Shown here piece by piece: positions 919 through 39,554 of a stretch of DNA of 42,470 nt. A program made the translations under genes and the position numbers. The notes under the pieces are model-generated. The model was given only the letters and a program-made list of their open reading frames with translations. It was not told the DNA's origin and did not search any database. The DNA comes from a virus (lineage: Duplodnaviria; Heunggongvirae; Uroviricota; Caudoviricetes), in IMG/VR virus record IMGVR_UViG_2690316243_000004, one strand, 5' to 3'. How positions within the stretch are numbered: position 1 is the first letter of the stretch; each line of letters begins with the position of its first letter.

Positions 919-920
919 TC

Positions 921-1454: not shown

Positions 1455-1460
1455 GAGAAG

Positions 1461-1481
1461 GCCCGCTATCGGGCCTTAATT
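1461..1481. terminator. Hairpin between convergent chaperone genes (possible bidirectional terminator); same element recurs at 2866-2886 and 15081-15101
   Basis: aaggcccg-ctat-cgggcctt stem-loop followed by a T-rich tract, placed between convergently transcribed genes. Confidence 0.4.
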
Positions 1482-1482
1482 T

Positions 1483-2046: not shown

Positions 2047-2490
2047 TCAATTTCTGAATTGGCCTTCTGGCAACAGTGTCGACAATATCATCCGCATTGC
2101 TGTTAATTGCGGCTGTTAAAACATAACCTGACGCATCGCCAAAGCCGTAGTCGCGCCATACGTTTTTATATTCAATGCTGCCAAGACGAATATCCCGAAC
2201 GACATGATTATGCAGCCATGTGCTTAACCAGTTGTTTTCCCACACTGAACCATAAATATCGCCACTAGACGCAACTTGCGCACCACTTCCCAGCGCAAAT
2301 CCCCCATCTGTTTTAAAAATGAAATCACCACCACCATCTGAACCGTTATTAATATGAACACCATCACCACCGTTATCTTTCCACAAAAACATACGAATTC
2401 TTCCGTCTTCGTTGGCGAATGTAATGTGGTGGCGGTAATTACTTTTTAATCTAAAATTGCTGCCATTAGATTCAATATCTTTATAAAGAT
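2012..2490 (-). pseudogene. Silent or truncated copy of the 3' end of tail fibre gene H (C-terminal cassette)
   Basis: Translation matches the last ~150 aa of H ([16 protein letters not shown]...[18 protein letters not shown]). Homology stops abruptly at the n at 2491; the listed ORF 2012-2686 is a chimeric read-through. Confidence 0.6.
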
Positions 2491-2491
2491 N

Positions 2492-2860
2492 AATAATATT
2501 ATTGTCGCCATCACCAAAGATGCCTCCACGCTTAACCCTGAAGGTTATAGCGTCGTTGAGGTTCCTGATATTACAGCAAATCGCCGGGCTGATATTTCGG
2601 GCAACTGGATGTTCAAAGATGGTGCGGTGATAAAGCGAACTTATACCGAGGAAGAGCAAAGGCAACAAGCGGAAAATGAAAAGCAAAGCCTGCTACAGCT
2701 CGTCAGGGATAAAACCCAGCTATGGGACTCACAGCTACGGCTGGGCATTATTTCCGACGAGAATAAACAAAAATTAACCGAGTGGATGCTCTATGCGCAG
2801 AAGGTTGAATCCACAGACACCTCCAGCCTGCCAGTAACGTTTCCCGAACAACCAGAATGA
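2492..2860 (+). pseudogene. Tail fibre assembly chaperone, 5'-truncated C-terminal fragment
   Basis: In-frame translation from the junction reads ...[40 protein letters not shown]..., a third near-identical copy of the chaperone C-terminal half. Its first ~70 bp are an inverted repeat of part of 2889-3449. Confidence 0.55.
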
Positions 2861-2888
2861 GAGAAGGCCCGCTATCGGGCCTTAATTT

Positions 2889-3449
2889 TTACTCAGGCTT
2901 TTGTGGCCATTCTGGCTTTGCCGTATCCACACGGCTGACCAGAACACTGTAGCGTTCCCATGCTTCCAGTCGTGTGCGTTCCTCGTCTGTTGCCATATTC
3001 AGCCTGACAGCGCGTTCCAGCGGCTGGATGACTGATTCAGCTTCGGAAAGCAATGCGGCCTTTTGTGATTCGGCCTGTTGTTGCTGTTCGTCAGCCGTAT
3101 AAATCCGTTTAACCACAGCTCCGTCCTTAAACATCCACTTACCGGAATCATCAGCACGACGATTAGCTGTAATATCAGGAACCTCAACGACGCTATAACC
3201 TTCAGGGTTAAGCGTGGAGGCATCTTTGGTGATGGCGACAATAATATTATTTGCATCGTAAACAATCTTTATTGTGTCTGGCTGAAAGTTCTTCACTTCC
3301 TCATACCAGTTTTTTCCGTCCTCAGAGTAAAGCCAGATGACTCCGTGCTTCTTTGTTAACTCATACTGCTCCACTGTTTTAGCATTACCTGCTTTTATGT
3401 TCTTTAAGTGCATCATATTAAATACTCGCCACATTATACCAAGTGCCAT
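2889..3449 (-). CDS. Tail fibre assembly chaperone (Tfa/gpG-like), variant partner of the 3418-4428 cassette
   Basis: 186 aa; N-terminal half diverged from, C-terminal half nearly identical to, the 1483-2046 and 15103-15666 copies. Confidence 0.8.
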
Positions 3450-4428
3450 TTATATACTTTTGCACTGGCCTGTAATGAACGCCTGCAATATTATCGGCAG
3501 AGTTTTTTCCGGTATCCTGTACGTTAATCCCCGTCAGTACATAGCCTGACGGGCACTGAAAATTCCATGTTTGCCAGTTGTTCACTCCATAATATTGCTG
3601 TGAACCAAGTCGAACATCTTTCACATATCTGGAATCAAAATTGCCATAGTTGCCGGGAATAACTTGCGAGCCGCAAAGCCAGTTCCCGTTATTATCCATG
3701 TACGCCTGACCATCGGTGCCATTGGCTGTCCTTGAGTTATTAATCATGTAGATGCCAAATTGCTTATTTCCCAGACCGCCAATCATAAATTTGCGGTCGG
3801 CATGGTCCTGACGGAGCAAAGCCTGAGCACCATCAGTGGATACCGCATTACGTCCCAAAATAACATTCTGGTCACGCATATGAATCCACATGCCGGTACT
3901 ACTGTTAATTGCAAAACGGTTTGCAAATATATCCCCTGTAACATCAAGACCATGCCCCATGCTTATCCGGCCAGTTCTGAGATTAAGCGTAAAGGGGCGT
4001 AGTGGCCCTATATTACCATTTTCCCCTTCATTCTCTCGTGTAGGGATGATATGCAGGCATTCTTCAGAACGACGAAAAATGGCACCAAAAGATGAATTAA
4101 ATATCCTCAGTGCATTGACTGTCGATATTTTCACTTCACTGCTGAAAAGGGCTTCAACAAGAACAGACAAAGCATTCCATTTAAGATTCATCAGGTCTTT
4201 AGGCCGGGTGCCAATGATGCGGTGTCTCCATTTGAAATATTCATTGCCGTTGTTGCCTGTTTCAAACCACATGTAGGAATCGGTGTCTGCATCCGAATTA
4301 TTTTTAAACCCAATCTTTGCCCAGTCAGTATTTCGAATCCAGGCAAGGATTGAGTCGTTTTCAAAAGTAAGTCCACCGGACAACGTATCGCCATTTTTTT
4401 GCACGGCGTTACCAGCCTTGTTTACCGT
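3418..4428 (-). CDS. Alternative tail fibre C-terminal cassette (silent variable region)
   Basis: Begins directly at the crossover site with [20 protein letters not shown] (compare H: [20 protein letters not shown]) and ends [15 protein letters not shown]. An in-frame TAA at 4447-4449 inside the site closes the frame upstream, so it is not expressed as a fusion in this configuration. Confidence 0.7.
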
Positions 4429-4454
4429 TTCCTGTAAACCGAGGTTTTAGATAA
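4429..4454. promoter_or_regulatory. Recombination crossover site of the Gin/Cin/Pin/Hin (gix-like) type
   Basis: Minus strand reads TTATCTAAAACCTCGGTTTACAGGAA, one mismatch from the classical gix sequence as remembered. It sits at the fibre variable-region boundary about 55 bp upstream of the invertase 5' fragment. Confidence 0.6.
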
Positions 4455-4490
4455 TGGCCGTTTCCGGCCTGCATGGCATGATTTGCGCTT

Positions 4491-4715
4491 TTGGACGGGA
4501 GATTCAGCGTGCTGATTGGCTATGTAAGGGTATCAACAAATGACCAGAATACAGACCTGCAACGAAACGCTCTTGTTTGTGCAGGATATGAACAAATATT
4601 TGAAGATAAATTAAGCGGAACAAGGACAGGCCGACCTGGATTAAAACGTGCTTTAAAGCGCCTTCAAAAAGGTGACGCACTGGTTGTCTGAAAACTGGAC
4701 TGACTGGGTCACTGT
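4491..4715 (+). pseudogene. Serine invertase 5' fragment (truncated duplicate of 5687-6274)
   Basis: Encodes (M)LIGYVRVSTNDQNTDLQRNALVCAGYEQIFEDKLSGT... then a stop after ~66 codons. About 95% identical to 5649-5905, after which similarity is lost. Confidence 0.7.
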
Positions 4716-4889
4716 ATGCGGCATCTTGTCGTGCTGGTGGTGGAAGCCTAGAAAAAGTATCGGGTGTTGCTGAACCGTGTTGATACATCAACTGCACCTG
4801 ATATTGAGTGGCCTACGAACCCTGTCAGGGAGTAATCATTGGGATTATGCCGCAGCACGTCTTAAGCAAGAACGTGCTGCGGTTGGATG

Positions 4890-5474
4890 CTATTTTTTCC
4901 CTGAAGCGGAAAACATTACTACAGTACCTTGAACCCTGGTTTTAACATTCTCGAAATGCTCTGAGAGTATATGTGTTAAGCCTTCTTCGGAATCTTTTGT
5001 GTTTGAAAAGATGCCTTTCTGATTGTAAATGCGCATCAGTTTTTGACCGAAGCTATTGTGCACAACTCCATCGCCAAGAATTGTGGCTCCGTATAGAGTT
5101 CCATCGTCAGTTAAGGCCTGCGCCGCATTGCGTATTACACAGCTTTTTGTAGATATATTTCCAGGCAGGCAGTGAAGAAGGTAAAACATGGAAATGGAAT
5201 CAAATTGACCATGTAACGCCGCGGGATAAGGTTCAAAAACATCATGGCTAATTTTATGTTTAATTTTTGATTCCCCAGCCCTTGTAGATGCCGCGTTCAG
5301 GCTAGCTTCGTTCAAATCCATTAAAGATATCAGACTACTCTCAGGTACGTGAGTAAGGTAAAACCCAGTTCCAACACCAATATCCAGATGGTTGTTACCT
5401 AAATGTTCCAGAAAGTGTGGAAGAAGGTGTTCCTTTGTAGGACATCCCCATGCAAGCCGATTTGATACTCCCAA
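4890..5474 (-). CDS. Class I SAM-dependent methyltransferase, substrate unknown
   Basis: Motif I LDIGVGTG (DxGxGxG) near the N-terminus. The listed start is TTG; the frame stays open upstream to about 5556 with no in-frame ATG, so the true start is uncertain. Local sequence is AT-richer than the phage genes. Confidence 0.6.
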   Translation of the reverse strand: MGVSNRLAWGCPTKEHLLPHFLEHLGNNHLDIGVGTGFYLTHVPESSLISLMDLNEASLNAASTRAGESKIKHKISHDVFEPYPAALHGQFDSISMFYLLHCLPGNISTKSCVIRNAAQALTDDGTLYGATILGDGVVHNSFGQKLMRIYNQKGIFSNTKDSEEGLTHILSEHFENVKTRVQGTVVMFSASGKK

Positions 5475-5686
5475 AACCCACCAGTCATAAAGCTTTAGGG
5501 TAAGTGGTGTGTAAATTTTAGCCCCATCATCTGTGTTTTTTTCATTGATTTCACCATGTTATAGTTTTATTTGTGAATTAAATCAATTATGGCGATGAAT
5601 TACAAGGGGTTAAATGCTGCCGCAGCATAGCGATATTGAAATAGCCTNGCATGGCATGATTTGCGCTTTTGGACGGGAGATTCAGC

Positions 5687-6274
5687 GTGCTGATTGGCTA
5701 TGTAAGGGTATCAACAAATGACCAGAATACAGACCTGCAACGAAACGCTCTTGTTTGTGCAGGATGTGAACAAATATTTGAAGATAAATTAAGCGGGACA
5801 AAGACAGACCGACCGGGATTAAAACGCGCTTTAAAGCGCCTTCAAAAAGGTGACACGCTGGTTGTCTGGAAACTGGATCGCCTCGGGCGAAGCATGAAAC
5901 ATCTGATTTCTCTCGTCGGGGAACTACGGGAGCGAGGAATTAATTTTCGCAGTCTGACCGACAGCATAGATACATCTTCTCCAATGGGGCGTTTTTTCTT
6001 CCACGTGATGGGTGCCCTGGCTGAAATGGAACGTGAATTAATTGTTGAACGTACACTGGCCGGACTGGCGGCAGCACGCGCACGGGGGCGCACAGGCGGA
6101 CGTCGACCGAAGCTGACAAAAGAACAGCATGAGCAAATAGCAAGGCTGATCAAAAACGGGCACGACAGAAAACAACTGGCAATAATTTACGGCATTGGTA
6201 TATCGACGATTTATCGTTACCACCCCGCAGGAGAATCAATCGGAACAATAGAGAAGAGTCAGGAAACAAAATAA
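5687..6274 (+). CDS. pin: Serine recombinase, DNA invertase of the Pin/Gin/Cin/Hin family
   Basis: From the GTG start the protein reads MLIGYVRVSTNDQNTDLQRNAL... with the catalytic serine region and a C-terminal helix-turn-helix (GISTIYRY); closely resembles E. coli prophage Pin as recalled. Confidence 0.9.
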   Translation: MLIGYVRVSTNDQNTDLQRNALVCAGCEQIFEDKLSGTKTDRPGLKRALKRLQKGDTLVVWKLDRLGRSMKHLISLVGELRERGINFRSLTDSIDTSSPMGRFFFHVMGALAEMERELIVERTLAGLAAARARGRTGGRRPKLTKEQHEQIARLIKNGHDRKQLAIIYGIGISTIYRYHPAGESIGTIEKSQETK

Positions 6275-6309
6275 CCGCTAATCTGACCATTAGCGGTTTT
6301 TGTGTTAAA

Positions 6310-6804
6310 TCAGAACAACCCTTTAACTGAACTGGCCGCGCTGTTAAGGGATGATGTTACCTTATCTTTGAAGCCGGACAGCATATCGCTGAACGATGAG
6401 GATTGCAGGCGCTCCCGCAAATCCTCATCACAGCGTTCAAGAGTCAGTGAAAATTCTATCTTTTTCGCCTTACCGTAGCGATCAAACTCGGAGCGGGTCG
6501 TATTCGTTTCGGTCAGGACATACATGCCGTAAATCTGCCCGACGCCATCAATCAGAGGCCAGGGTCGTCCTGTATACGCCTGCGTGGTCAGCAGCGACAG
6601 CGACACTTCGCCACCTGTAATTTCAGGATAAAGCACACCAGAAAGAACGATGCGCTCATCACCTGCACCGATATACTGCCAGCTTGCCGAACGGTTAACG
6701 CGTTCATTTTTCACATGCCGCCAGCTTTTGTTTTGCTGTAACTGCTGATGCGGCAATGTACGCAGCTCAAAAACAAACATGCCGTAGATCATCATCATGG
6801 CCAT
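6310..6804 (-). CDS. Tail protein gpU-like
   Basis: 164 aa, immediately downstream of the tape measure gene in the FI-FII-E-T-U order; size matches P2 gpU. Confidence 0.7.
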   Translation of the reverse strand: MAMMMIYGMFVFELRTLPHQQLQQNKSWRHVKNERVNRSASWQYIGAGDERIVLSGVLYPEITGGEVSLSLLTTQAYTGRPWPLIDGVGQIYGMYVLTETNTTRSEFDRYGKAKKIEFSLTLERCDEDLRERLQSSSFSDMLSGFKDKVTSSLNSAASSVKGLF

Positions 6805-6810
6805 GACTCC

Positions 6811-9704
6811 TCAATCTTTATCGTAAAAACTGCCACGCCCGGCACGGGCGCGCCGTTCCATTTCTGCCCTGACCATTTCACCGACCAGTTTCGCCAGTTC
6901 GCGGGGATTCTGCGTAACAACGTTATGCAGATGAACATGAATTTCACCACCAAATCCGGAGGCAACAGGCTCCCGGTTACGGGAAGTTACAGGAACTGAT
7001 GCCACTGGAGAGCGTATGGCCTCCGCCACCGGGCGGGAGCTGGCCGCAACAACAGGGACCAGCGCCGGAGGCAGCGGAGCCGGGACCACGGGTGTGATAT
7101 TAATTGCGGGGGCAGGCTTACTGACCTGCGCAATCTTCCGCTCCTGCCACTCCCCACGAACAGCAAGTGCGCGGGGCAGGTTCTTAAAGACAATATCGCC
7201 GGGGCCAATGCGTTTTTTCGTCTCATCAACCAGCTTACCTGTGTTATCAGCAATTTTGCTGAGTCTGCGTAGCGTCCCGGTATTGCTGTCTGTGAGCGGT
7301 TTGTTGTCTTTGGGTTTATCACCTCCGGTGCCATTGCCATTTTCCACAGGCTTCGGCGGATTGATTTTCGCCAGGTCCCCCTGAAGCAAGGCAACCTTGT
7401 CCTGAAGAATGGCCGCACGCTGTGCGTCTTCGATTTTCTTGCGCGCCCTTTCCGCTTCATCCGGAAGGACGCCAAGTTTTTCAAGTATCCACGCCAGCGT
7501 ATCCAGTAGCATTTTTGCAGGTGTCAGAACAAGTTGTAACGCACCGCCAAGAACGTTACCGAATATCTCGCCAGCACTGGCACATTTATCCAGCGTTTCC
7601 TTGCTGGACTCCATCGGTGACAGCAGCGATTTAAACCAGTTAAAGACCTGAATAATCCCATCGCGCACGACATCAAAAACAGGGCCAAACCGTTCAAAGG
7701 TTTCGCGCAACGGGGTCAGCCTTTCCATAATCCCGCTGAACACCCCGGCAAAAAATGCCCTGATGGGATCCCAGTATTTCCAGATAAGAACGGCAGCTCC
7801 GGCAAGCGCAGCCACGATAAGACTAACCGGACTGAACAGCGCCCCGATAGCGCCACCAAGTAAAGAAACGGAACCCGTCACCATTCCCCATAATGCAGGC
7901 AGAACCCTGACAACATTCATTGATTCGGTCAGGAGAGAAAAACCGAGACGCAACGTAGCCAGCTTCCCGTGAAGCACCCCAATAACCAGAGACAACGAAC
8001 CAACCGTTGCTGTTGTCGCCAGCAGTGCGCCTCCCGCTATCAGTAACTGGCGCGTCAGTGCCGGGTGGGCCTGCGCCAGCGCCGTCACCTTTGAGACAAC
8101 CCGCGTGAGCCACTGCGTGACAGAACGCAGCGGACCGTCAACCAGATCACTGATGCGAATACGCAGACCTTCCCATGCACTGCCGAGTGATTTCAGGTTG
8201 CCATCAAGGTTATTGGCCATAACCTTTGCCGTGCGTTCTGCCTCACCGCGCGCGCCTTCAAGTTCTTTTCTCAGTTTGGCTAAGAAGCCGTCACCTGCCG
8301 CATCAACGAGGCCCATAAATGATGTGAAAGCCTCTTCTCCGGCAATGTCCTTAAAGAACGATACCCGGTCAACCTCCCCGTATTTGCGGGTGGCTTTATA
8401 GAGATCGGCCAGCACATTCTCCATCGGGCGCATTTTGCCTTTGGCGTCAGCAACTGACACCCCCAGCTCTTTCAGTGCTTCTGCCGCTGCCTTTGGCGGT
8501 GATGACAGATTGGCCAGGCTTTTACGCAACGCTGTACCTGCATCACTCCCCCTGATACCCATCTTCGCCAGCACGCCCGCCATCGCTGCGGCCTGCTCCA
8601 GCGATATTCCCAGCTTACCCGCCACCGGACCTGCATATTTCATGGTTTCGCCCAGTGCGCGAAGGTCAGTGTTGGTACGGGTAAACGCTGCGGTAAGTGT
8701 GTCACCGACCCGGTCCATCTGGTCAGCAGAGAGGCCGAACTGCGTCAGGATATTGGAACCAATATCCGCCGTCTCGCCGAGGTCCATACCGCCAGCCGTT
8801 GCCATGCTCAGCACGCCGGGAAGCGCAGCCTGAATGGCCTGCGGTGTGAAACCAGCCATTGCAAGAAATGCCTGTCCACTGGCGGCATCGCCTGCGGTGA
8901 ACTGCGTTTCAGAGCCAAGTTTTAACGCCTGCTCACGCAGCGCCTTAAACTGCGGGCTGTTTTTATCGATTCGCGTCAGTGCCTGAACACGGGACATCTC
9001 TTTCCCGAACCCGATAGCGGGCTGCAAAAAACGCCNNNNNNNNNNNNNNNNNNNNNNNNNNNNNNNNNNNNNNNNNNNNNNNNNNNNNNNNNNNNNNNNN
9101 NNNNNNNNNNNNNNNNNNNNNNNNNNNNNNNNNNNNNNNNNNNNNNNNNNNNNNNNNNNNNNNNNNNNNNNNNNNNNNNNNNNNNNNNNNNNNNNNNNNN
9201 NNNNNNNNNNNNNNNNNNNNNNNNNNNNNNNNNNNNNNNNNNNNNNNNNNNNNNNNNNNNNNNNNNNNNNNNNNNNNNNNNNNNNNNNNNNNNNNNNNNN
9301 NNNNNNNNNNNNNNNNNNNNNNNNNNNNNNNNNNNNNNNNNNNNNNNNNNNNNNNNNNNNNNNNNNNNNNNNNNNNNNNNNNNNNNNNNNNNNNNNNNNN
9401 NNNNNNNNNNNNNNNNNNNNNNNNNNNNNNNNNNNNNNNNNNNNNNNNNNNNNNNNNNNNNNNNNNNNNNNNNNNNNGGCGTCGTGCTTTCACGATGCCC
9501 GCATCCGCTTTACTGACAGCGTCACGGGCGCGCTCAAATGAACGCGCCTGACGCTCGAGATTTTTGATCGCCCCCTGCGTTCGCTGGATGGAGTCACCAA
9601 ACTGCCCCATCAGGCGGCGGGCGTTTTCGGCAGGGNNNNNNNNNNNNNNGCCGGGTCAGCCTGTCAACGGCGCTGAAAGCGACCCGGATATCAAGAGTCT
9701 TCAT
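6811..9704 (-). CDS. Tail tape measure protein (gpT-like), interrupted by assembly gaps
   Basis: Long alanine/glycine-rich, helix-rich protein. The listed 738 aa ORF continues through the N run to an ATG at 9704-9702 (MKTLDIRVAFSAVDRL...). Confidence 0.75.
9036..9477. other. Run of N (sequence gap) inside the tape measure gene; a second short N run is at 9636-9649
   Basis: Directly visible as n characters. Confidence 0.99.
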
Positions 9705-9909
9705 TGTCTGCATTCCCGCTGCGAAGTGCCGCCCGCTCACGCCAGCTAACCACTTCGCCGGGCGTCATCATGAAGATTTCGGCGGGCGACCAGTTAAAAA
9801 TGGCGGCAATATCCGCCACAAAGTCTTCTATGTGCTCAAAGCACACAACCGTGATCAGGCTTCCGTCGCCTGTTCGTTCTTCTCGCCAGAGTCCGCACCG
9901 CTCAAAAAA
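9691..9909 (-). CDS. E-prime extension, made as an E+E' fusion by -1 programmed frameshifting
   Basis: Minus strand reads gta aaT TTT TTG agc (heptamer at 9903-9909). The -1 frame then gives ERCGLWREERTGDG...NEDS, ending 14 bp inside the tape measure start. Confidence 0.6.
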   Translation of the reverse strand, partial: FFERCGLWREERTGDGSLITVVCFEHIEDFVADIAAIFNWSPAEIFMMTPGEVVSWRERAALRSGNADNEDS

Positions 9910-10220
9910 TTTACGGCAACCACACATAACTGAATAAAGTCACGGGATGCCATTTTTTTGATCGTCACTTCATCCAGTCGCGGTGATGTCACGCGTGACA
10001 GCAGCGTAAACATGGATTCCGCTTTCAAATTCAGCACATCAGACAGCGACAAATCTCGCAGAGATCCAGCCTGCTCAATAGCCCCGGTGATCTCCACATA
10101 CGTGATTTTTTCGCCGCCTCGCTCAATTGGTTGGGTAAGTTTTACGCCACGCTCACTGGTTTCTTTCACAGTGTCAGCAACGACCGTGTTTTCGGTATCG
10201 ATGTTTTTCGTCTCTTTCAT
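9855..10220 (-). CDS. Tail assembly chaperone gpE-like (zero-frame product)
   Basis: 121 aa ORF between the tail tube and tape measure genes; contains a T TTT TTG slippery heptamer near its 3' end. Confidence 0.7.
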   Translation of the reverse strand: MKETKNIDTENTVVADTVKETSERGVKLTQPIERGGEKITYVEITGAIEQAGSLRDLSLSDVLNLKAESMFTLLSRVTSPRLDEVTIKKMASRDFIQLCVVAVNFLSGADSGEKNEQATEA

Positions 10221-10274
10221 CAGGAAACTCCTTTCAGTCAGAGGCGACGCACTGCGCCGCCTGCATATTACTTA

Positions 10275-10787
10275 TCAGCCAAGCCCGAGCGCGGAACGGA
10301 TGCGATCGGGCACAATGTCCCTGCCGTCCTTCCGGTAAATGAAGTTCAGCAGGTCAATCTCCCACAACGGGCGATCGTTAACACTCAGCTTGTAGTAGGT
10401 GTTTTTAATGGCGTAAGTGTGTGATGTGGCTTCGCCCTGTTTGGCTTCCCCCATATCAATTTCCGTCACACGTCCGCGCATTTCGACTTCATACAGGTCG
10501 CTTTCAGCGTCGGTGTAGTATTCACCCGCAAAACGCAGCAGCGTACCGTCAATCGTGCCGCCATACTTAAGGAACAGCTCACGAACTGCGCCCCCCATGA
10601 CAAAGCTCGCATCAAGCGCGGAGTCATCCAGGCCGAGATCAATACTTACCGCTCCCATCATGCCACCACCCCGGTAGCTGTCGGTTTTGCGCGTCAGCTT
10701 AGGCAGAGTGACGGACGTCACCTTACCCACTTCGTTTTCACCATCCACAAACAGCGTAAAAAAGCGAAGATGTTTTGGTACAGCCAT
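10275..10787 (-). CDS. Tail tube protein (FII-like)
   Basis: 170 aa, immediately downstream of the sheath gene with overlapping stop/start; size and position match P2 FII. Confidence 0.8.
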   Translation of the reverse strand: MAVPKHLRFFTLFVDGENEVGKVTSVTLPKLTRKTDSYRGGGMMGAVSIDLGLDDSALDASFVMGGAVRELFLKYGGTIDGTLLRFAGEYYTDAESDLYEVEMRGRVTEIDMGEAKQGEATSHTYAIKNTYYKLSVNDRPLWEIDLLNFIYRKDGRDIVPDRIRSALGLG

Positions 10788-11971
10788 CAGGCACCTCCCA
10801 GCACCGCAAATGCGGGACCAAAGAATTCATCAGTAAACGACTGGTAAAGCTCCATGTCTTCCAGCGGGGGAACAGGCGTATATTTGTAGCGAATACGCAC
10901 GCGCCCCTGACGTAAATTCGTGGTGCCGTTATCCACCACGTCATACCAGCACGACGCCCCAATCAGTTTCCCGGCAGTAACCAGTGAATCCAGTTTTGCC
11001 CTGATGGCACCGATAACATCCTTCACGTTCGCAGGCGTCAGTGGACTGTCGATGGTTTCAAACTGCGCTTCCGCAATTGAATCAGCCAGCACCTGTGCGG
11101 TTCGGGTATACACCTCAAAGATGTAGGCGTTCGTTTCCGGTGTGCGGTTGCCCCAGAAGCGGAACCCGTTGCGACGAATAATGGTCGTGATTTCTTTGTT
11201 GTTGAGGCTGTTGGCATCACTGTCTTCGGCCTGCAACGACCAGAACACATGCCTGGACATCCCCAGCACATTTTTAACCGGAACGTTGGACAGCGATTTG
11301 TGCCAGCCCTGCTCATGGTCAATGTACGCACGAAGGCCGCACGCATAGGCAGGCGCGGGGAACGTTTCGTTTTTGCCACTTTTCGGGTTGTAGGCGATGA
11401 AGTCCGGCCATAAGAGCATCACCTCACGTTCGTTGAATTTCTGGCGGTAGGTAATTGCCTCAGCCATCGTGTTACAGTCATGACATGAGGCATACACAAA
11501 CGCGCGCAGTTTACCCGCAATCACGCACAGGGATTTTGTCACCGCCTCCGTGTCCAGCTCCGGCGCGGCCAGAATACGCGGACGGTATCCGATGCTTTCA
11601 TCCTGCTCTGCAACAAGCAGCGCATACATCCCCGTATAGCTGCCGTCAGATTCAGAACCACCGATAACCAGTTGATCCTGCGTTTTTCCGTCTTCTTCTT
11701 TGTGTTCAGCCACGCGAACGACGATCACCTTTGTGCTCACCTGGTCTGCGATGGCCTTAAGCGCACGATAAAGCGTCCCCGTTGTTCCGCATTTTCCCAG
11801 CACGTCATTGACGCGGGGCAGCAGTGTGGGCTTGTTCAGCGAGAACAGCTCCGCGTCCGCATCATCCGCCGTTGCCACGATACCGATAACGCTGGAATCA
11901 ACATCGTTAATCGCTGTTACCAGGTCGGTATTTTCCGTAACACGGGCACCATGAAAACGAGTTTCACTCAT
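10787..11971 (-). CDS. Contractile tail sheath protein (FI-like)
   Basis: 394 aa; size and position match P2 FI. Confidence 0.85.
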   Translation of the reverse strand: MSETRFHGARVTENTDLVTAINDVDSSVIGIVATADDADAELFSLNKPTLLPRVNDVLGKCGTTGTLYRALKAIADQVSTKVIVVRVAEHKEEDGKTQDQLVIGGSESDGSYTGMYALLVAEQDESIGYRPRILAAPELDTEAVTKSLCVIAGKLRAFVYASCHDCNTMAEAITYRQKFNEREVMLLWPDFIAYNPKSGKNETFPAPAYACGLRAYIDHEQGWHKSLSNVPVKNVLGMSRHVFWSLQAEDSDANSLNNKEITTIIRRNGFRFWGNRTPETNAYIFEVYTRTAQVLADSIAEAQFETIDSPLTPANVKDVIGAIRAKLDSLVTAGKLIGASCWYDVVDNGTTNLRQGRVRIRYKYTPVPPLEDMELYQSFTDEFFGPAFAVLGGA

Positions 11972-12128
11972 AGCTTCAACCCCTTGTATCCGTTAAATGA
12001 TTCGGCAACAATCATCACCCACCACGCGCGTAATCTCACCCCTGCGCCATTCTCCCGCCACGGCGACAACAAAAAGCAGTAACCCCCTCCGCACGCACAT
12101 GCGACCATGCCACACAGGGAGGGAGCAG

Positions 12129-13238
12129 ATGACCGACACCACCATGCAATTGCTCAGTCAGGGCACAGACCCCGTGAAAATGCCGGATTTTGATATTCTC
12201 GCGGAGGGTAAAACGCTGTCAGGCGTGGCAGAGCGCCTGATGAGCCTGTCACTGACCGACAACCGGGGATTTGAGGCGGACCAGCTCACCATCACGCTGG
12301 ATGATGCGGATGGTCAGTTGCAGCTACCGCCACGGGGCGCGCGCCTGACGGTTCTCATTGGCTGGAAGGGAGAACCGCTGACAGAAAAAGGCACTTACAT
12401 TGTTGATGAAATCGCTCACGAAGGACCGCCGGACAGGCTGACTGTTTCAGCCAGAAGCGCAGATTTTCGGGCTGAATTTAACGTTAAACGTGAGGTGTCC
12501 TGGCATGATGTGACCGTTGAGCGTGTGGTATCCGCCATCGCTCATCGGTATGGTCTGAAACCGCAAATCAGCGAAATGCTGATGGATATCGAAATCGACC
12601 ACGCCGACCAGACCGAAGAAAGCGACATGTCCTTCCTTACGCGCATGGCGGAAATGCTGGGCGCAATCACCACGGTAAAAAGCGGTAATCTGTTATTCAT
12701 CATGCCCGGTGGTGGCGTGAACGCACAGGGCCAGCCGTTGCCCTCGTTCGCCATCACACGCAGCAGCGGCGATCGCCATCAGTTCCGCATTGCTGACCGC
12801 GAAGCGTATACGGGGGTACGCGCTTACTGGCTTGATCTTAATTACGGGAAAAAGAAAAAAGTCAGCGTGAAACGCCGCAAACCGTCAAAACCAAAAAAGG
12901 AGAAAAGCAGCAGCCGGGAAGGCGACTATATGGAAGGTGCGGAAGGCAACGTGTTTGTGTTACGCAAAACTTATCAGAACGAGCAGGCAGCAAGACGTGC
13001 AGCGGCGGCAAAGTGGCAGCAGCTACAACGCGGAGCCGCATCATTCTCCATCACACTGGCGCATGGACGTGCAGAACTCTACCCCGAAATGCATGGCACG
13101 GTAACAGGATTTAAAAGCGAGATTGATAATCAGGACTGGATTATTGCAAAAGCCGAGCACACCATTGATAACAGCGGCTTTACCACGCAGCTTGAGCTTG
13201 AGGCAAAAATCCCGGAATGGATAGCAGAAACAGAGTGA
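12129..13238 (+). CDS. Tail protein D (late control gene D family)
   Basis: The listed ORF starts at 11997, but the ATG at 12129 follows a GGAGGG ribosome-binding site. It is divergent from FI, which is not the P2 order. Confidence 0.75.
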   Translation: MTDTTMQLLSQGTDPVKMPDFDILAEGKTLSGVAERLMSLSLTDNRGFEADQLTITLDDADGQLQLPPRGARLTVLIGWKGEPLTEKGTYIVDEIAHEGPPDRLTVSARSADFRAEFNVKREVSWHDVTVERVVSAIAHRYGLKPQISEMLMDIEIDHADQTEESDMSFLTRMAEMLGAITTVKSGNLLFIMPGGGVNAQGQPLPSFAITRSSGDRHQFRIADREAYTGVRAYWLDLNYGKKKKVSVKRRKPSKPKKEKSSSREGDYMEGAEGNVFVLRKTYQNEQAARRAAAAKWQQLQRGAASFSITLAHGRAELYPEMHGTVTGFKSEIDNQDWIIAKAEHTIDNSGFTTQLELEAKIPEWIAETE

Positions 13239-13478
13239 GCAACTTAAATGTATTAACTCAGAACGGATCAACACACTCACAACATAGAGTCAATATAGCT
13301 GCTCGCTTTGTTCCAGCAAGGATGCCTATTTCTAAGGAAAAACAGAGCAGAAACATATGGTGTTTTCCTACCTGACATCAGGGGTGGTAGACTGGCCCCC
13401 TGAATCTCCAGACAACCAGTATCACTTAAATAAGTGATAGTCTTAATACTAGTTTTTAGACTAGTCATTGGAGTACAG

Positions 13479-13844
13479 ATGATTGATGTCTTAGGGCCGG
13501 AGAAACGCAGACGGCGTACCACACAGGAAAAGATCGCAATTGTTCAGCAGAGCTTTGAACCGGGGATGACGGTCTCCCTCGTTGCCCGGCAACATGGTGT
13601 AGCAGCCAGCCAGTTATTTCTCTGGCGTAAGCAATACCAGGAAGGAAGTCTTACTGCTGTCGCCGCCGGAGAACAGGTTGTTCCTGCCTCTGAACTTGCT
13701 GCCGCCATGAAGCAGATTAAAGAACTCCAGCGCCTGCTCGGCAAGAAAACGATGGAAAATGAACTCCTCAAAGAAGCCGTTGAATATGGACGGGCAAAAA
13801 AGTGGATAGCGCACGCGCCCTTATTGCCCGGGGATGGGGAGTAA
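13479..13844 (+). CDS. insC: IS2 transposase OrfA (InsC)
   Basis: [56 protein letters not shown]... helix-turn-helix protein. Confidence 0.85.
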
Positions 13845-14707
13845 GCTTAGTCAGCCGTTGTCTCCGGGTGTCGCGTGCGCAGTTGCACGTCATTCTCAGA
13901 CGAACCGATGACTGGATGGATGGCCGCCGCAGTCGTCACACTGATGATACGGATGTGCTTCTCCGTATACACCATGTTATCGGAGAGCTGCCCACGTATG
14001 GTTATCGTCGGGTATGGGCGCTGCTTCGCAGACAGGCAGAACTTGATGGTATGCCTGCGATCAATGCCAAACGTGTTTACCGGATCATGCGCCAGAATGC
14101 GCTGTTGCTTGAGCGAAAACCTGCTGTACCGCCATCGAAACGGGCACATACAGGCAGAGTGGCCGTGAAAGAAAGCAATCAGCGATGGTGCTCTGACGGG
14201 TTCGAGTTCTGCTGTGATAACGGAGAGAGACTGCGTGTCACGTTCGCGCTGGACTGCTGTGATCGTGAGGCACTGCACTGGGCGGTGACTACCGGCGGCT
14301 TCAACAGTGAAACAGTACAGGACGTCATGCTGGGAGCGGTGGAACGCCGCTTCGGCAACGATCTTCCGTCGTCTCCAGTGGAGTGGCTGACGGATAATGG
14401 TTCATGCTACCGGGCTAATGAAACACGCCAGTTCGCCCGGATGTTGGGACTTGAACCGAAGAACACGGCGGTGCGGAGTCCGGAGAGTAACGGAATAGCA
14501 GAGAGCTTCGTGAAAACGATAAAGCGTGACTACATCAGTATCATGCCCAAACCAGACGGGTTAACGGCAGCAAAGAACCTTGCAGAGGCGTTCGAGCATT
14601 ATAACGAATGGCATCCGCATAGTGCGCTGGGTTATCGCTCGCCACGGGAATATCTGCGGCAGCGGGCTTGTAATGGGTTAAGTGATAACAGATGTCTGGA
14701 AATATAG
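13802..14707 (+). CDS. insD: IS2 transposase OrfB (InsD), DDE catalytic domain
   Basis: 301 aa ORF overlapping insC in the -1 frame, as in IS3-family OrfAB frameshift fusions. Confidence 0.85.
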
Positions 14708-14729
14708 GGGCAAATCCANAGCATCAAGC

Positions 14730-15074
14730 CAAGATAAACGCTATCACATTGTTGAAGGCGCAAGCGTCGTTGAGGTTCCTGATATTACAGCAAATCGCCG
14801 GGCTGATATTTCGGGCAACTGGATGTTCAAAGATGGTGCGGTGATAAAGCGAACTTATACCGAGGAAGAGCAAAGGCAACAAGCGGAAAATGAAAAGCAG
14901 AGCCTGCTGCAGCTCGTCAGGGATAAAACCCAGCTATGGGACTCACAGCTACGGCTGGGCATTATTTCCGACGAGAATAAACAAAAATTAACCGAGTGGA
15001 TGCTCTATGCGCAGAAGGTTGAATCCACAGACACCTCCAGCCTGCCAGTAACGTTTCCCGAACAACCAGAATGA
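14730..15074 (+). pseudogene. Tail fibre assembly chaperone, C-terminal fragment truncated by IS2
   Basis: Begins just past the IS2 right end and encodes only the conserved C-terminal half (...[24 protein letters not shown]...PEQPE). Confidence 0.6.
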
Positions 15075-30373: not shown

Positions 30374-30685
30374 TCATTCAGGAAATAATGCCCGGATATT
30401 CCCTGCTATCTGACTGGTTATCTGTGCGGTTGGTACTGGCTGTGGCACGGGGCGTTCTGTCCTGGTTTGTGTCACCGATAACGCCTCATCGTCAGCCCAT
30501 GCAGCCAGTCGGTAAGCCTCTGCTGGATTCATTTTCAGAAGTGCCAGCCCGGCCAGAAAAGCCACGCGTTGGCCGCTTTTGCGGGCTTCTGGTGTAAGGC
30601 TGCCCAGCCAGGCGCATGCTTCGCTTTCGTTCTTGACGGCCGCAGGCTTCAGATAGAAACTTATCCGTCTGGTTGGTGTCGTCAT
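30374..30685 (-). CDS. ParR-like centromere-binding adaptor
   Basis: About 103 aa from the internal ATG preceded by AAGGAG. The segment SGQRVAFLAGLALLKMNPAEAYRLAAWA resembles the remembered plasmid R1 ParR core (RAALTAGLALYRQDP) and sits directly after the ParM-like gene. Confidence 0.5.
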   Translation of the reverse strand: MTTPTRRISFYLKPAAVKNESEACAWLGSLTPEARKSGQRVAFLAGLALLKMNPAEAYRLAAWADDEALSVTQTRTERPVPQPVPTAQITSQIAGNIRALFPE

Positions 30686-30689
30686 TGGT

Positions 30690-31649
30690 TTACTCCTTGT
30701 CCATTGCGTACAGCCCATTAACCAGAGCAAACTGTGGCACCCCGTCCGCGATGAAAGTCGCATTAACTCCGCAGGCTTCGCGGATAGCGGGTGCCACAAT
30801 CTCCGCCCCTCCACCGACAACCATCACCCGCCCGTAACCCGAAAAACCCGCCAGCGCGCGGATCACGCGTTGTTTCAGTGTTTCTTCCTTTTCACGAATA
30901 ACCGCCATCAGGCTGGCGTAATGCGCGTCATTGTGGATGTGCTGGCGCAGCCAGGCTTCATCATGGCGATGTTCGATAATGGTATTGGCGATGTGGTGAC
31001 TGGTGCGCATACCGTTAGTGGCCATCACCGACAGTACGGCATCGGCCATCAGAGAAACGCCTACGTGTGGATCGCAAAACACCTGGCTGATACCTGCCAG
31101 TTGCCCCTGAACCTTTGCCACATCCAGCGTGGTTCCGCCCAAATCCACAATCAGCAGGGATTCAAACGGACTCATGTCAGCCAGTGCCTTAAAGCCAGCC
31201 GGAATGGATTCAGGCATAACCCGCACGTTACGGATAGTGAATGCTTCGCCGTTCTGGTACTCCACCGGGCGCATAACGTTCGCTTTTTTGCGGTTGATGT
31301 TGGCCATGTCCGGCTGTGCGTTTGTGTCGAAATACTCGCTCAGTGGCAGGGTGACAACCACATCCACCTCCTGTGGCGTGATGCCTGATTTGACCAGCGC
31401 GTGATGAATGGCAATGACATTTACATCGCTGTACTGGTATTGCGTGTCGGTTGTCTGGACAAAGCGATCGCTGACCGGATCAAAACCATAGCGCACGCCA
31501 TCAAGCATGTAGTTCGCGGGCTGCATGCCACCGAACGGCGCAGACCATTCCGACTTGAAGCTGTTCGGGCTGATGGCGTTGCGGCGTTCGCCGTTCTCAG
31601 TCCATGCCAGCTTGATGTTGGTGGAGCCGTCGTCGATACAAATTTTCAT
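30690..31649 (-). CDS. ParM/StbA-family actin-like segregation ATPase
   Basis: 319 aa with IDDGSTNIKLAW, QYSDVNVIAIHHAL, VMPESIPAG, LLIVDLGGTTLDV, VMVVGGGAEIV and ALVNGLYAM, collinear with plasmid R1 ParM as recalled. Confidence 0.8.
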   Translation of the reverse strand: MKICIDDGSTNIKLAWTENGERRNAISPNSFKSEWSAPFGGMQPANYMLDGVRYGFDPVSDRFVQTTDTQYQYSDVNVIAIHHALVKSGITPQEVDVVVTLPLSEYFDTNAQPDMANINRKKANVMRPVEYQNGEAFTIRNVRVMPESIPAGFKALADMSPFESLLIVDLGGTTLDVAKVQGQLAGISQVFCDPHVGVSLMADAVLSVMATNGMRTSHHIANTIIEHRHDEAWLRQHIHNDAHYASLMAVIREKEETLKQRVIRALAGFSGYGRVMVVGGGAEIVAPAIREACGVNATFIADGVPQFALVNGLYAMDKE

Positions 31650-36982: not shown

Positions 36983-37294
36983 ATGTCAATAGAGATATCA
37001 AAGAAGCTAAAAGCAATTCGAGAATCTGAGGGGCTTAGTCAGGCAAAGTTCGCGGATTCAATAGGTATTGCGGTTGGTACGGTTAAGCAATACGAGACTG
37101 GTATTCGAGGTGTGGGAACGGAGGTTTTACTGAAAATCACAATGCACCCGGAATTTAAAAAATACACTACGTGGTTGATGAGTAACGAAACAAATGAGGC
37201 TGCTGGGCAGATCAGTCCTTCTCTCTCCCCTGATGGGCCAGAAAACACATCGTCTTCTCAAAAATCCCGCAAGACTGGCACACAGCCCGGCTAA
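36983..37294 (+). CDS. Immunity repressor (P2 C-like)
   Basis: From the internal ATG: MSIEISKKLKAIRESEGLSQAKFADSIGIAVGTVKQYETG... (helix-turn-helix), tail ...GQISPSL...SSQKSRKTG similar to P2 C as recalled; sits immediately upstream of int. Confidence 0.75.
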   Translation: MSIEISKKLKAIRESEGLSQAKFADSIGIAVGTVKQYETGIRGVGTEVLLKITMHPEFKKYTTWLMSNETNEAAGQISPSLSPDGPENTSSSQKSRKTGTQPG

Positions 37295-37343: not shown

Positions 37344-38321
37344 ATGAGCATAAAATCAATTCCGGGAGGGTATCTTCTTGACATGCGTCCTGAGGGGCGT
37401 AAAGGCAAACGCATTCGCAAAAAATTTAAAACGAAATCGGATGCAGTTTTATATGAGCGGTGGGTGCTGGCGCAACAGCATAACAATGAGTGGAAAGGAA
37501 ACTCCATTGATCGCCGTCCGCTGTCAGTGCTTATTGACTTGTGGTGGAAATACCACGGCCAGCTAATGAAGTCAGGGCATAACACGCGCCTTAAATTGCT
37601 GCGCTTGAGTGAGGCAATGGATGACCCGTGCGTGCATAAACTTAATACAACGATGCTCACCGAGCTACGTGTGTCCAGGATAGAGCAGGGGATACAGCCC
37701 AGCACCATAAATCGAGAGATTGGGGCGTTAAGCGCGATGTTTACCGCACTCATCTCATCCGGCCATTTTCTTAACGATAACCCCGTTCAAGGCCTTAAAG
37801 GAATGAAGGTTAACGAGCGTGAAATGGGATATCTGAGTAAGTCTGAATGTGTTCAGTTGCTGGATGCACTGGCTGAAAATCCCGATGAACGGCTGGCCGT
37901 CGAAATCCTTCTGTCGACCGGGGCGCGATGGGGCGAGGTAGCGGCACTGGAGCAGCGCCGTGTTCTTCATTGTCGAATCACTTTTTCAAAAACGAAGAAC
38001 AGCAAAAACCGTACCGTTCCTATTTCTGAAAGCCTGTTTGAAAAGATCAAAAAACGGGGCGGGAAACTGGTGTTTCCGACGCTGGATTATTCATTGGTTC
38101 GCGATGTCATCAAAACGGTCGCACCTGATGTTCCTGACGGCCAGGCTGTTCATGCGCTGCGCCACACCTTCGCCAGTCATTTCATGATGAACGGCGGCAA
38201 TATTCTGACGCTCCAGAAAATTCTGGGGCACGCAAAGATTCAGACAACGATGATTTATGCCCATCTTGCGCCGGATTACTTGCAGGATGCGGTGAGGTTT
38301 AATCCCTTGGGAGGAATGTAA
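37344..38321 (+). CDS. int: Tyrosine integrase, P2/186 family
   Basis: 325 aa from the ATG at 37344; C-terminal catalytic region HALRHTFASHFMMNGGNILTLQKILGHAKIQTTMIYAHL carries the conserved Arg/His/Tyr residues. Confidence 0.9.
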   Translation: MSIKSIPGGYLLDMRPEGRKGKRIRKKFKTKSDAVLYERWVLAQQHNNEWKGNSIDRRPLSVLIDLWWKYHGQLMKSGHNTRLKLLRLSEAMDDPCVHKLNTTMLTELRVSRIEQGIQPSTINREIGALSAMFTALISSGHFLNDNPVQGLKGMKVNEREMGYLSKSECVQLLDALAENPDERLAVEILLSTGARWGEVAALEQRRVLHCRITFSKTKNSKNRTVPISESLFEKIKKRGGKLVFPTLDYSLVRDVIKTVAPDVPDGQAVHALRHTFASHFMMNGGNILTLQKILGHAKIQTTMIYAHLAPDYLQDAVRFNPLGGM

Positions 38322-38323
38322 CT

Positions 38324-38824
38324 ATGGAAATAAAAAAACCTACAAAAAAAGAGTTATATGACTATTTACTATCGAAATATATAGAAGATAAATGCAAAGA
38401 AGAAGCTGATGAAATCAATAAGAAGTCGATGAGTCGTGTCAAAAAACATAAAGAGCGGCTGATGGAGATTACGCCAGAAATCTTCTTCCGTTTCTTGTCT
38501 GAGAAGGGGGTCTCCAGTGTCTGCCCTTCATGTGGATCGTCGCGATTATCTGTTCCAGAAAGTATGGATCTTTGCTGGGATAAAAATAAGAAACCAGAAA
38601 ATTTTAACAATCTACCCCTGGAGGAACAGAGTGAGTTAATTAAAGAGAACATAAAGCATTATGTATCTTATGCTTTTTTGGGTGATGTTAAGAGCATACC
38701 TGATATGCGCAAAACTTATTACACGCTGCATTGCCTGAATTGTGGTTACCTGAGCCTTTATCGTACGTCTGCGGTGCTGAAGTGGTTGGAGAAAGACAAA
38801 GCGCAGGATGGTGATAATGGGTAA
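38324..38824 (+). CDS. Hypothetical zinc-ribbon-like protein, AT-rich cargo gene
   Basis: 166 aa, starts 2 bp after the int stop with GGGAGGAA inside the int 3' end; lysine-rich N-terminus; CPSCGSS...HCLNCGY cysteine pairs; much AT-richer than the phage genes. Confidence 0.5.
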   Translation: MEIKKPTKKELYDYLLSKYIEDKCKEEADEINKKSMSRVKKHKERLMEITPEIFFRFLSEKGVSSVCPSCGSSRLSVPESMDLCWDKNKKPENFNNLPLEEQSELIKENIKHYVSYAFLGDVKSIPDMRKTYYTLHCLNCGYLSLYRTSAVLKWLEKDKAQDGDNG

Positions 38825-39362
38825 TGTAGCAAGAAATCTTTTCGGTAATTCAGCAGGTAGTGTGTCGCATTCTGAGCGTGATGTGCTTTATCATGGTGGC
38901 GATGGCGGCAGTAGTGGAGGCGGAATGTCAGATAAACTTGAAAGGCGAATTGAGCGGCTCGAAGGTGATTTATCGCTAACAAGAAACGACCTTGCGACGC
39001 TTGCTGAACGCACTACAAACCTCTCAACTAAAGCCGATGTTGGTGAGGTGAAAGGTGAACTCAAAGCAGACATAGCACATCTGAAAGGTGATCTTGAATG
39101 CGATATTGCGAATCTGAAAGGTGAGCTTAAATCTGATACAGCTAACCTGAAAGAGCAGCTCAAATCAGACATTAACAGCCTGAAGGGTGAGCTTACCGAA
39201 GCGATGGATAAACGCTTTGACAAGATTATGGATGAGATGAATCGGCGGTTTGACAAGGTTGATGATAATACGAAGTGGCGTTGGAGTGGCATTATTGTGC
39301 CAGTGTGCACAACCATTTTCACAGCGGCGGTTGCTGTATTTGTTGCTAAATTTGTTGGCTGA
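38808..39362 (+). CDS. Hypothetical coiled-coil protein with C-terminal transmembrane anchor
   Basis: 184 aa overlapping the upstream gene. Glycine-rich N-terminus, four 11-residue repeats (DIAHLKGDLEC / DIANLKGELKS / DTANLKEQLKS / DINSLKGELTE), then WSGIIVPVCTTIFTAAVAVFVAKFVG. Confidence 0.5.
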   Translation: MVIMGNVARNLFGNSAGSVSHSERDVLYHGGDGGSSGGGMSDKLERRIERLEGDLSLTRNDLATLAERTTNLSTKADVGEVKGELKADIAHLKGDLECDIANLKGELKSDTANLKEQLKSDINSLKGELTEAMDKRFDKIMDEMNRRFDKVDDNTKWRWSGIIVPVCTTIFTAAVAVFVAKFVG

Positions 39363-39471
39363 TGATCCACAAATTGACCACATCTCTGTTATTTGTTGTG
39401 GTTGGCTGTGTTTTTGTGTGTCTGTAAGTCTTTGATAATTACCTAACTTATTGATTTTTGTTTGTGTTTAT

Positions 39472-39494
39472 GGCCGCTCTGCGGCCTTTTTTCT
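39472..39494 (+). terminator. Rho-independent terminator-like hairpin upstream of btuC
   Basis: ggccgc-tctg-cggcc followed by ttttttc. Confidence 0.5.
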
Positions 39495-39554
39495 TTTCAC
39501 TGTCGAAGAGTCACCGTAAAATCAACGCCATGACACTTCAGCAGAACGGATACC

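Follow-up and report, generated by a model that had tools for sequence, protein, structure and literature searches.

What are the two small genes that lie between the integrase gene and the attachment site of a P2-like prophage, do they belong to the phage or to its host, and what might they do? The question is raised by a stretch of 42,470 nt (IMG/VR virus record IMGVR_UViG_2690316243_000004, Caudoviricetes; the whole stretch is hereafter called the window), in which the right end of a P2-like prophage in E. coli DNA adjoins btuC-btuE-btuD-nlpC. The two open reading frames (ORFs) encode a Lys-rich, predicted zinc-ribbon protein (ORF1, or ZnR) and a tail-anchored coiled-coil protein (ORF2). 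Judged by their distribution, they form a conserved, widespread and self-contained accessory cassette of temperate Enterobacterales phages, a family which the preliminary description of this DNA did not recognise, as it did not recognise the N-terminal peptide, the glycine run and the internal Met of ORF2. With regard to function, the most plausible guess is that the pair serves a resident prophage in excluding other phages; this is a conjecture, to which we give somewhat less than an even chance.

Position of the pair between int and the attachment site

Homology to the uninterrupted ihfA-btuC region of E. coli K-12 starts at position 39472, and this empty site contains neither of the two genes. 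The att core begins at the same position (39472..39496, plus strand; GGCCGCTCTGCGGCCTTTTTTCTTT); it consists of the ihfA terminator hairpin plus T-run, and attL and attR of the complete O103:H2 12009 prophage have the same 25-bp sequence in common as a direct repeat. Between the ORF2 stop and the att core is a phage-derived attachment arm of 109 bp (39363..39471, plus strand; 32% GC), which is without K-12 homology. With the att core at 39472-39496 and K-12 homology from 39472 onwards, ORF1, ORF2 and the arm are therefore inside the element, and the alternative that the pair is host DNA is excluded by the K-12 empty site and the att repeat. The comparison with an uninterrupted ihfA-btuC locus, by which the preliminary description had proposed to place the att core, thus puts the module within the prophage, and the same genes at this site without a prophage, named there as the refuting case, were not found: a phage integrase is adjacent in all 23 E. 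coli genomes with the full module. Integration duplicates the att core, with one copy still terminating ihfA and the other closing the presumed C-int-ORF1-ORF2 unit and insulating btuC.

In phage P2 itself (NC_001895) the P' arm overlaps the 3' end of int, and 79 bp separate the int stop from the attP core, as expected from the earlier statement that attP is directly next to int in P2. As P2 has no genes between int and attP, the cassette is an insertion relative to P2. A 32-kb Klebsiella sequence deposited as a plasmid (CP052639) is a P2-like genome with int, the pair and tail genes in this order, an arrangement which matches what an excised phage genome carrying the cassette would look like. 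The defence hotspots described for P2-like phages are the A-Q interval, the Z/fun position and, as a minor one, the int-att interval (Rousset 2022, PMC9122126; PMC13586616), the latter with 3% of P2 defence systems (PMC13586616). The pair resembles such hotspot cargo in that it occupies the int-att interval, is inside the element and varies in content between related prophages, but differs from it in that the variation is here mostly among alleles of one family, and in that the cassette is not recognised by PADLOC. The interpretation in the preliminary description holds in part. Its proposal of acquired cargo is supported: the pair is inside the prophage, is found neither at the K-12 site nor in P2, and is variable among related prophages.

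The spacing of the genes is as tight as first reported. The int gene (37344..38321, plus strand), encoding a P2-type tyrosine integrase (Pfam Int_N, 1.5e-28; Phage_integrase, 1e-19), ends with a TAA stop codon at 38319-38321, and ORF1 (38324..38824, plus strand, 166 aa) starts with an ATG at 38324, 2 nt beyond this stop. A ribosome-binding site for ORF1, GGAGG, can be read in the final int codons (38310..38314, plus strand), 9 nt before the ATG. The ORF2 frame is open from an ATG at 38808, while homologues use the second ATG at 38817; the long form of ORF2 that starts there (38817..39362, plus strand, 181 aa) overlaps the ORF1 stop by 8 nt (ATGGGTAA). Residue numbers in the 184-aa numbering of ORF2 are counted from 38808, those in the 181-aa numbering from 38817. 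The GC content is 38.5% for ORF1, 45.2% for ORF2 and 49.4% for int, compared with 52.9% for the remaining prophage, and of the two genes that were both called much AT-richer than the phage, ORF1 is clearly so and ORF2 only moderately.

Upstream of int is the gene for the immunity repressor C (36983..37294, plus strand), an ORF of 103 aa with a helix-turn-helix (HTH) domain and a homologue annotated as HTH protein in O103:H2 12009, and the promoter scan placed an early promoter divergent from C at 36989-36960 on the minus strand. From int to ORF2 the scan of the window detected nothing that resembles a plus-strand promoter, and the att-core hairpin is the only strong plus-strand terminator downstream of ORF2. 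We presume that C, int, ORF1 and ORF2 form a lysogenic transcription unit closed by the att-core terminator and, following P2 biology, we assume that the pair is transcribed together with C and int from the repressor promoter.

Conservation and allele diversity of the cassette

The survey of the pair covered about 20 loci from Escherichia, Salmonella, Klebsiella, Providencia and others, including two isolated siphophages. These were E. coli loci of four allele classes (the window, L012, L002/L003, L031 and L032-type), Salmonella loci (L007, L026 and L028), single loci from Klebsiella (L015) and Providencia (L010), further loci (L018, L020, L022-L025 and L040), and the isolated Salmonella phage SPN3UB (gp24/gp25) and Klebsiella phage ST101-KPC2phi6.1. 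The ZnR gene is followed in every examined locus by the partner gene, the start of which overlaps or abuts the ZnR stop, and both proteins are conserved to 25-45% identity across several genera, with the Cys and motif residues invariant. All partner proteins but one have the same layout, i.e. a variable peptide of 20-35 residues, a glycine run, a Met, a coiled coil and a C-terminal transmembrane (TM) segment, with an ATK(A/S)D motif being usual in the coiled coil; the L031 partner has no glycine run. The C-terminal TM segment is present in every complete partner examined, the L022 partner ending at a contig edge.

The position of the pair is after int in most loci, but in L018 (a 186-like prophage) it is upstream of int, between cI and int, in Providencia L010 it is beside ogr without an adjacent int, in L040 it lies within a tail-gene cluster, and in SPN3UB it is found beside the Arc/Ant immunity region and a lipoprotein moron. 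Given this variable position, the pair is an autonomous unit rather than an accessory of int, and a role as int accessory or excision factor was rejected since the pair occurs without adjacent int and in tail-gene positions. The coupling to the integrase in the preliminary description therefore stands as far as the tight packing is concerned, which recurs in other lineages, but the link is positional, as the pair is also found upstream of int or without it. In E. coli E110019 (L036, 1-1585) an IS3-family transposase is located directly upstream of a 120+145-aa pair, at the expected place of int, and thus the pair can persist beside a disrupted integrase.

Some loci have additional features. 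Two more membrane proteins are encoded upstream of the pair in the lysogenic operon of L018 (2804-3896), one of 135 aa with an N-terminal hydrophobic segment that is probably a signal sequence, and a tail-anchored one of 203 aa with a Flk_N domain. The beta-layer motif of the partner protein (described below) is itself tandemly repeated in the L018/L019 allele, and in L019 (4431-4983, against 4431-5063 in L018) the partner gene is split within the ATKADLQ repeat tract by a frameshift or repeat-length error. In L020 (5056-6840) the pair is followed at the prophage end by an ORF of 594 aa without Pfam or PADLOC match, which may be extra cargo.

Comparison of alleles separates the cassette into two parts. 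Between the window and STEC388, which represent two E. coli alleles, identity is 34% for ZnR and 4% for the N-terminal peptide of the partner, as against 98% for stalk and anchor, and for the two Salmonella alleles of L007 and L026 the corresponding values are 24%, 4% and 89%. When the same ZnR type is compared across genera, ZnR is 58-70%, the N-terminal peptide 27-54% and stalk plus anchor 45-49% identical. In addition, all nine loci checked combine a long ZnR with a peptide of (E/D)RDV type or a short ZnR with one of G(V/I)T(P/L)I(R/L) type. From these identity contrasts and the matching of types it follows that ZnR travels together with the N-terminal peptide when alleles are exchanged, and that the glycine run marks the seam. 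Such co-inheritance would fit docking of ZnR on the peptide.

The attachment arm was found at btuC in 301 of 5426 complete E. coli genomes, and 37 of these 301 have the E. coli-type stalk of the window. A sample of nine other arm-bearing genomes consisted of four with a 120+145-aa pair, one with a 127+99-aa pair, one with a short ZnR and a diverged DUF1640 gene, and three with an unrelated 131-aa ORF. This unrelated ORF, for which there is no family match, lies in the int-att interval of L030 (3609-4004; O104:H4 2011C-3493), L033 and L034. One and the same repressor, WP_000904674, occurs with the pair and also with the unrelated gene; presence of the cassette thus does not depend on a particular type of immunity. 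The pair is accessory: P2 does not have it, and related prophages with the same arm hold other alleles or an unrelated gene. Within one E. coli/Salmonella P2-like lineage at ihfA-btuC the cassette appears to occupy most prophages, and it recurs in phages of lambdoid size.

Predicted architecture of the two proteins

ORF1 is most simply read as a small four-cysteine zinc-ribbon protein, for which zinc binding is predicted. As noted in the preliminary description it is Lys-rich (23 Lys, 14%) and has two CxxC pairs, which are CPSC at residues 67-70 (38522-38533) and CLNC at residues 137-140 (38732-38743). Both CxxC knuckles are conserved throughout the family as in a zinc ribbon, and the positions that do not vary among 29 diverse relatives are C67, C70, C137, C140, G141 and W154; the matches to named Pfam zinc-ribbon families were all below threshold. 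ORF1 matches PHROG 4293 (function unassigned, E=8.1e-23), and by these searches it has no named family apart from this one. Its AlphaFold2 (AF2) model, with a predicted local distance difference test score (pLDDT) of 82.8, opens with a long helix at the N-terminus, and this leads into a helix/beta zinc-ribbon body. No significant match to the model was found among PDB or viral predicted structures, nor to ORF1 in a profile search of PDB sequences, and tblastn with the ORF1 allele of the window gave no match in isolated phages. The family is small: a search of 5.8 billion proteins gave 18 clusters, and one of 1.84 billion proteins gave 90 representatives at the 50% identity level. Its members are all standalone proteins of about 60-180 aa, mostly 100-180 aa.

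ORF2 starts with a variable N-terminal peptide of 26 aa (38817..38894, plus strand), which is co-inherited with the ZnR type and disordered on its own in the AF2 model, followed by the glycine run GGDGGSSGGG (38895..38924, plus strand) and an invariant internal Met codon (38925..38927, plus strand). In the stalk there is a beta-layer motif, L-S-T-K-A-D, the DUF1640 signature (39021..39038, plus strand), which coincides with the sole helix break of the stalk, and then a tract of five tandem 33-bp units (39051..39215, plus strand) encoding 11-residue (hendecad) repeats, KGELKADIAHL and variants, of which the fifth is degenerate. Tandem Repeats Finder reports the 33-bp period at 39049-39153. The C-terminal TM helix (WRWSGIIVPVCTTIFTAAVAVFVA; 39276..39347, plus strand), which is supported by both hydropathy and AF2, is followed only by KFVG and hence forms a tail anchor; the hydropathy peak of 2.43 is at residues 159-177 of 181, with 4 residues after the helix. 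In the monomer model (184-aa numbering) residues 1-38 are disordered (pLDDT < 50), and the helices span residues 40-73, 76-150 and 156-183, with the break between the first two exactly at T74-K75. The 11-residue repeats and the C-terminal helix of the preliminary description were therefore recovered, with five units instead of the four counted there. Homologues come in lengths of 112/123/134/145/156 and 148/159/170/181/192 residues, and since these are steps of 11 residues, repeat number and thus stalk length differ between alleles.

By motif and topology, ORF2 is a divergent relative of the DUF1640/CCDC90-like proteins (PF07798), which include mitochondrial MCUR1 and CCDC90B. The Pfam match of ORF2 to PF07798 (24.1 bits, E=3.7e-5) is below the gathering score of 33.5, several close homologues carry a precomputed PF07798 match, and NCBI labels homologues as 'DUF1640 domain-containing' or 'CCDC90 family'. 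Both groups have a coiled-coil stalk that is anchored at the C-terminus and has the beta-layer motif x-(A/S)-T-K-x-(D/E) close to its beginning, and the TM segment expected of PF07798 is present in ORF2 according to hydropathy and AF2. The phage proteins differ in that they add the variable N-terminal peptide, the glycine run and an obligate zinc-ribbon partner. Hartmann et al. 2016 (PMC4786415) described the motif, [aliphatic]-A-T-K-[polar]-[D/E], in DUF1640 membrane proteins and also in other coiled-coil families, among them trimeric adhesins; its T, K and D are invariant in 23 ORF2 homologues, and the window allele has S in place of A. ORF2 also matches PHROG 9415 (function unassigned, E=6.5e-15), and in a profile search of PDB sequences it gave marginal matches only (E 0.015 and 0.036).

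The start of ORF2 is annotated differently in public databases. The RefSeq/PGAP start is the internal Met codon at 38925, which gives a protein of 145 aa and a 100-bp gap to ORF1 instead of an overlap. ORF2 as a 145-aa protein only was rejected, because in 14/14 diverged loci the open frame reaches upstream of the internal Met as far as the ZnR stop. The chance of such an open frame upon shuffling is 0.04-0.18 per locus, or jointly ~1e-14 if the loci are independent, and the glycine run is made of in-frame repeated GGN codons; from the open frames, the shuffling odds and the in-frame GGN run we conclude that long ORF2 is under selection. The ratio of nonsynonymous to synonymous substitution rates (dN/dS) is 0.39-0.84 for the N-terminal peptide and 0.15-0.39 for the stalk.

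The ORF2 gene may also give two isoforms, i.e. the long one and a short one of 145 aa that starts at the internal Met as a possible second initiation site. This proposal is made because the internal Met (M40 in the 184-aa numbering) is an invariant alignment column, while other coiled-coil core positions vary, and because in 14 of 16 loci a GGAGG is found no more than 21 nt before the internal ATG. That of the window is part of the glycine codons (38916-38920) and precedes the ATG by 4 nt. The internal Met is present in every locus with a glycine run, and the run itself in 16/17 partner proteins.

Annotation of the pair is uneven in other respects as well. Both RefSeq and the record of Klebsiella phage ST101-KPC2phi6.1 let homologues of ORF2 begin at the internal Met, and intact genes for short-type ZnR are unannotated in L003 (TUM1880, ~2617-3015) and L026 (2602-3000). 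With ORF2 starts inconsistent and short ZnR genes uncalled, surveys based on public annotation will under-count the pair.

Candidate functions of the pair and other features of the window

ORF2 would form a stalk, probably as a trimer, that is anchored in the inner membrane and stands on its cytoplasmic side, and ZnR would dock on the flexible N-terminal peptide of ORF2. The long isoform would be coupled to ZnR translation, while a short isoform from the internal Met could not bind ZnR, and the complex would be made in lysogens from the repressor promoter. If the pair excludes other phages, ZnR would be the variable part responsible for sensing or specificity, with the membrane stalk as the constant effector or platform. 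It is possible, but rather doubtful as a whole, that the pair represents an unrecognised two-component exclusion family of temperate phages, in which the flexible N-terminal peptide of a trimeric inner-membrane stalk carries a zinc-ribbon sensor that can be exchanged, with stalk length tuned by 11-residue repeats and activity set by the ratio of long to short isoform, the short one coming from the conserved internal start. The general kind, a lysogen-expressed accessory cassette in a phage hotspot, is known, and the two-protein design is new. Were such a role in phage-phage competition true, it would add to the prophage defences a compact, domain-poor system that is missed by detection tools, and the swappable sensor with its docking peptide, the variable stalk length and the possible dual start are design features that can be tested.

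The closest parallel is with lambda RexA/RexB, which are co-transcribed with the repressor in the lysogen, RexB being a polytopic channel-like protein. Both systems would combine a soluble and an inner-membrane component, and both are accessory to the phage. Co-transcription of the pair with the repressor would be compatible with the sequence of the window, the pair being on the same strand as C at tight spacing, with no predicted internal promoter and with the att core as first terminator. RexA and RexB have, however, no sequence or fold similarity to the pair, and unlike the polytopic RexB, ORF2 combines a long stalk with a single helix at the C-terminus.

Several observations weigh against phage exclusion and its proposed mechanism. 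No homology ties either protein to phage exclusion, and when both proteins and four further allele classes were scanned with Pfam, NCBIfam and PADLOC, nothing rose above noise. In PADLOC-DB v2.0.0 there was no match for any ZnR allele of all allele classes, and for ORF2 there were only weak coiled-coil matches (LmuB, LeoBC and, at E ~1e-4, the ZorA tail). The ZorA tail of Zorya, the region weakly matched by ORF2, is likewise a long coiled coil that extends from the inner membrane into the cytoplasm, but the ORF2 matches are compositional, and ORF2 has neither a MotA-like membrane domain nor a ZorB, ZorC or ZorD partner. There is no recognisable enzymatic or pore-forming domain, which leaves the single TM helix as sole candidate effector element. 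No functional study of the pair or its families was found in the literature, nor direct support for the generalisation in the preliminary description by which coiled-coil proteins with a tail anchor, when encoded at a prophage end, are often superinfection-exclusion or abortive-infection effectors. Co-inheritance of ZnR and N-terminal peptide could follow from their adjacency together with recombination at the conserved DNA of the glycine run, without any binding, and this peptide evolves fast (dN/dS 0.39-0.84). The whole case for an internal start consists of the invariant Met and the GGAGG, and in AT-rich genes GGA-GGN glycine codons could yield GGAGG by chance fairly often; taken alone, the argument from codon usage is weak. 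Transcription of the pair from the repressor promoter is an assumption taken over from P2 biology, and the presence of the cassette in most sampled prophages of the lineage would also agree with a function in lysogeny or induction of the phage itself.

This last role, in the lysogenic cycle of the phage itself or in host physiology, seems unlikely to us on balance. The pair might, for example, tether or sequester a regulator of integration, excision or induction, or it might modify the host in the manner of ElaB, YqjD and YgaM. Apart from its presence in the majority of sampled prophages of the lineage, this would explain its location beside the lysogeny genes C or cI and int, or beside Arc/Ant, and a cytoplasmic coiled coil with a C-terminal anchor would resemble the host proteins ElaB, YqjD and YgaM (DUF883), which are tail-anchored and ribosome-associated, their helical domain being held in the cytoplasm by one anchor at the C-terminus. 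These host proteins have, however, no homology to ORF2 detectable in the Pfam scan and no zinc-ribbon partner. The cassette is moreover dispensable, as P2 is without the pair and O104:H4-type prophages have an unrelated gene instead, it occurs in tail-gene moron positions far from int and without adjacent int, and it has no tie to immunity type, since WP_000904674 is found with the pair or with the unrelated gene. The extreme allelic diversity within one species also fits conflict better than housekeeping.

Slightly less likely again is a toxin-antitoxin or addiction pair, in which ORF2 would be a membrane toxin held in check by ZnR, stabilising the prophage and perhaps doubling as an abortive-infection switch. 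Two small, translationally coupled genes in fixed order with the soluble partner first would suit such a system, the cognate-looking co-variation of ZnR and N-terminal peptide suggests specific neutralisation, and there are many orthogonal allele classes within one species; a possible short isoform without the ZnR-binding peptide could be the free, active form. Neither protein is similar to any known toxin or antitoxin family, however, the long repeat-rich stalk is unlike the small membrane toxins Hok or TisB, and the promoter scan of the window gave no evident dedicated promoter for the pair, which is embedded in the C-int operon. Moreover, integration of P2-like prophages is stable as it is.

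A holin- or antiholin-like accessory role in the timing of lysis or in the envelope, with a dual-start membrane protein, is very improbable. The conserved internal start does recall the lambda holin S, where S105 and S107 (holin and antiholin) likewise come from two in-frame starts in one membrane-protein gene, as may be the case for ORF2, where the two products could antagonise each other or differ in regulation, and the TM segment and coiled coil have PHROG matches among holins and Rz-like spanins, which at E 0.004-0.03 are at noise level. The ORF2 starts are however 36 codons apart and not 2, holin topology and a lysis cassette are lacking, and the pair is never beside lysis genes, the complete O103:H2 prophage having its P2-type lysis cassette elsewhere; orientation and position are those of the lysogenic and not of the late operon. 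That these reading frames are open by chance, or are remnants decaying at the end of the prophage, as their low GC content and inconsistent public annotation (short ZnR uncalled in some genomes, differing ORF2 starts) might suggest, is effectively refuted by conservation to 25-45% identity with invariant Cys and motif residues in several genera, the stalk dN/dS of 0.15-0.39 and the paired architecture in every locus examined.

Elsewhere the window has several other features. Its first part (1-6274) holds cassettes of tail-fibre C-terminal and assembly genes on both strands and looks like an invertible host-range region, with a near-duplicate segment at about 1130-1454 and 2540-2860, an N at position 2491, a minus-strand methyltransferase ORF at 4890-5474 and, at 5669-6274, a resolvase-type invertase. 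The block from this invertase through U, T, E, FII and FI to D (5669-13238) is inverted relative to the O103:H2 12009 prophage (L006), and ogr, attL and ihfA are not in the window although it extends about 39 kb to the left of attR, so the prophage, or its assembly, seems to be rearranged. An IS3-family element at 13434-14707, consisting of an HTH_Tnp_1 ORF and an rve integrase-core ORF, is located in the tail-fibre region and is immediately followed by a tail-fibre-assembly fragment (14682-15074). Finally, a ParM-like actin (StbA_N and ParM domains) and a Plasmid_stab_B protein are encoded on the minus strand at 30374-31649, between replication gene A and the portal gene; this is a classical cargo hotspot of P2, here occupied by plasmid-type segregation genes in an integrated prophage.

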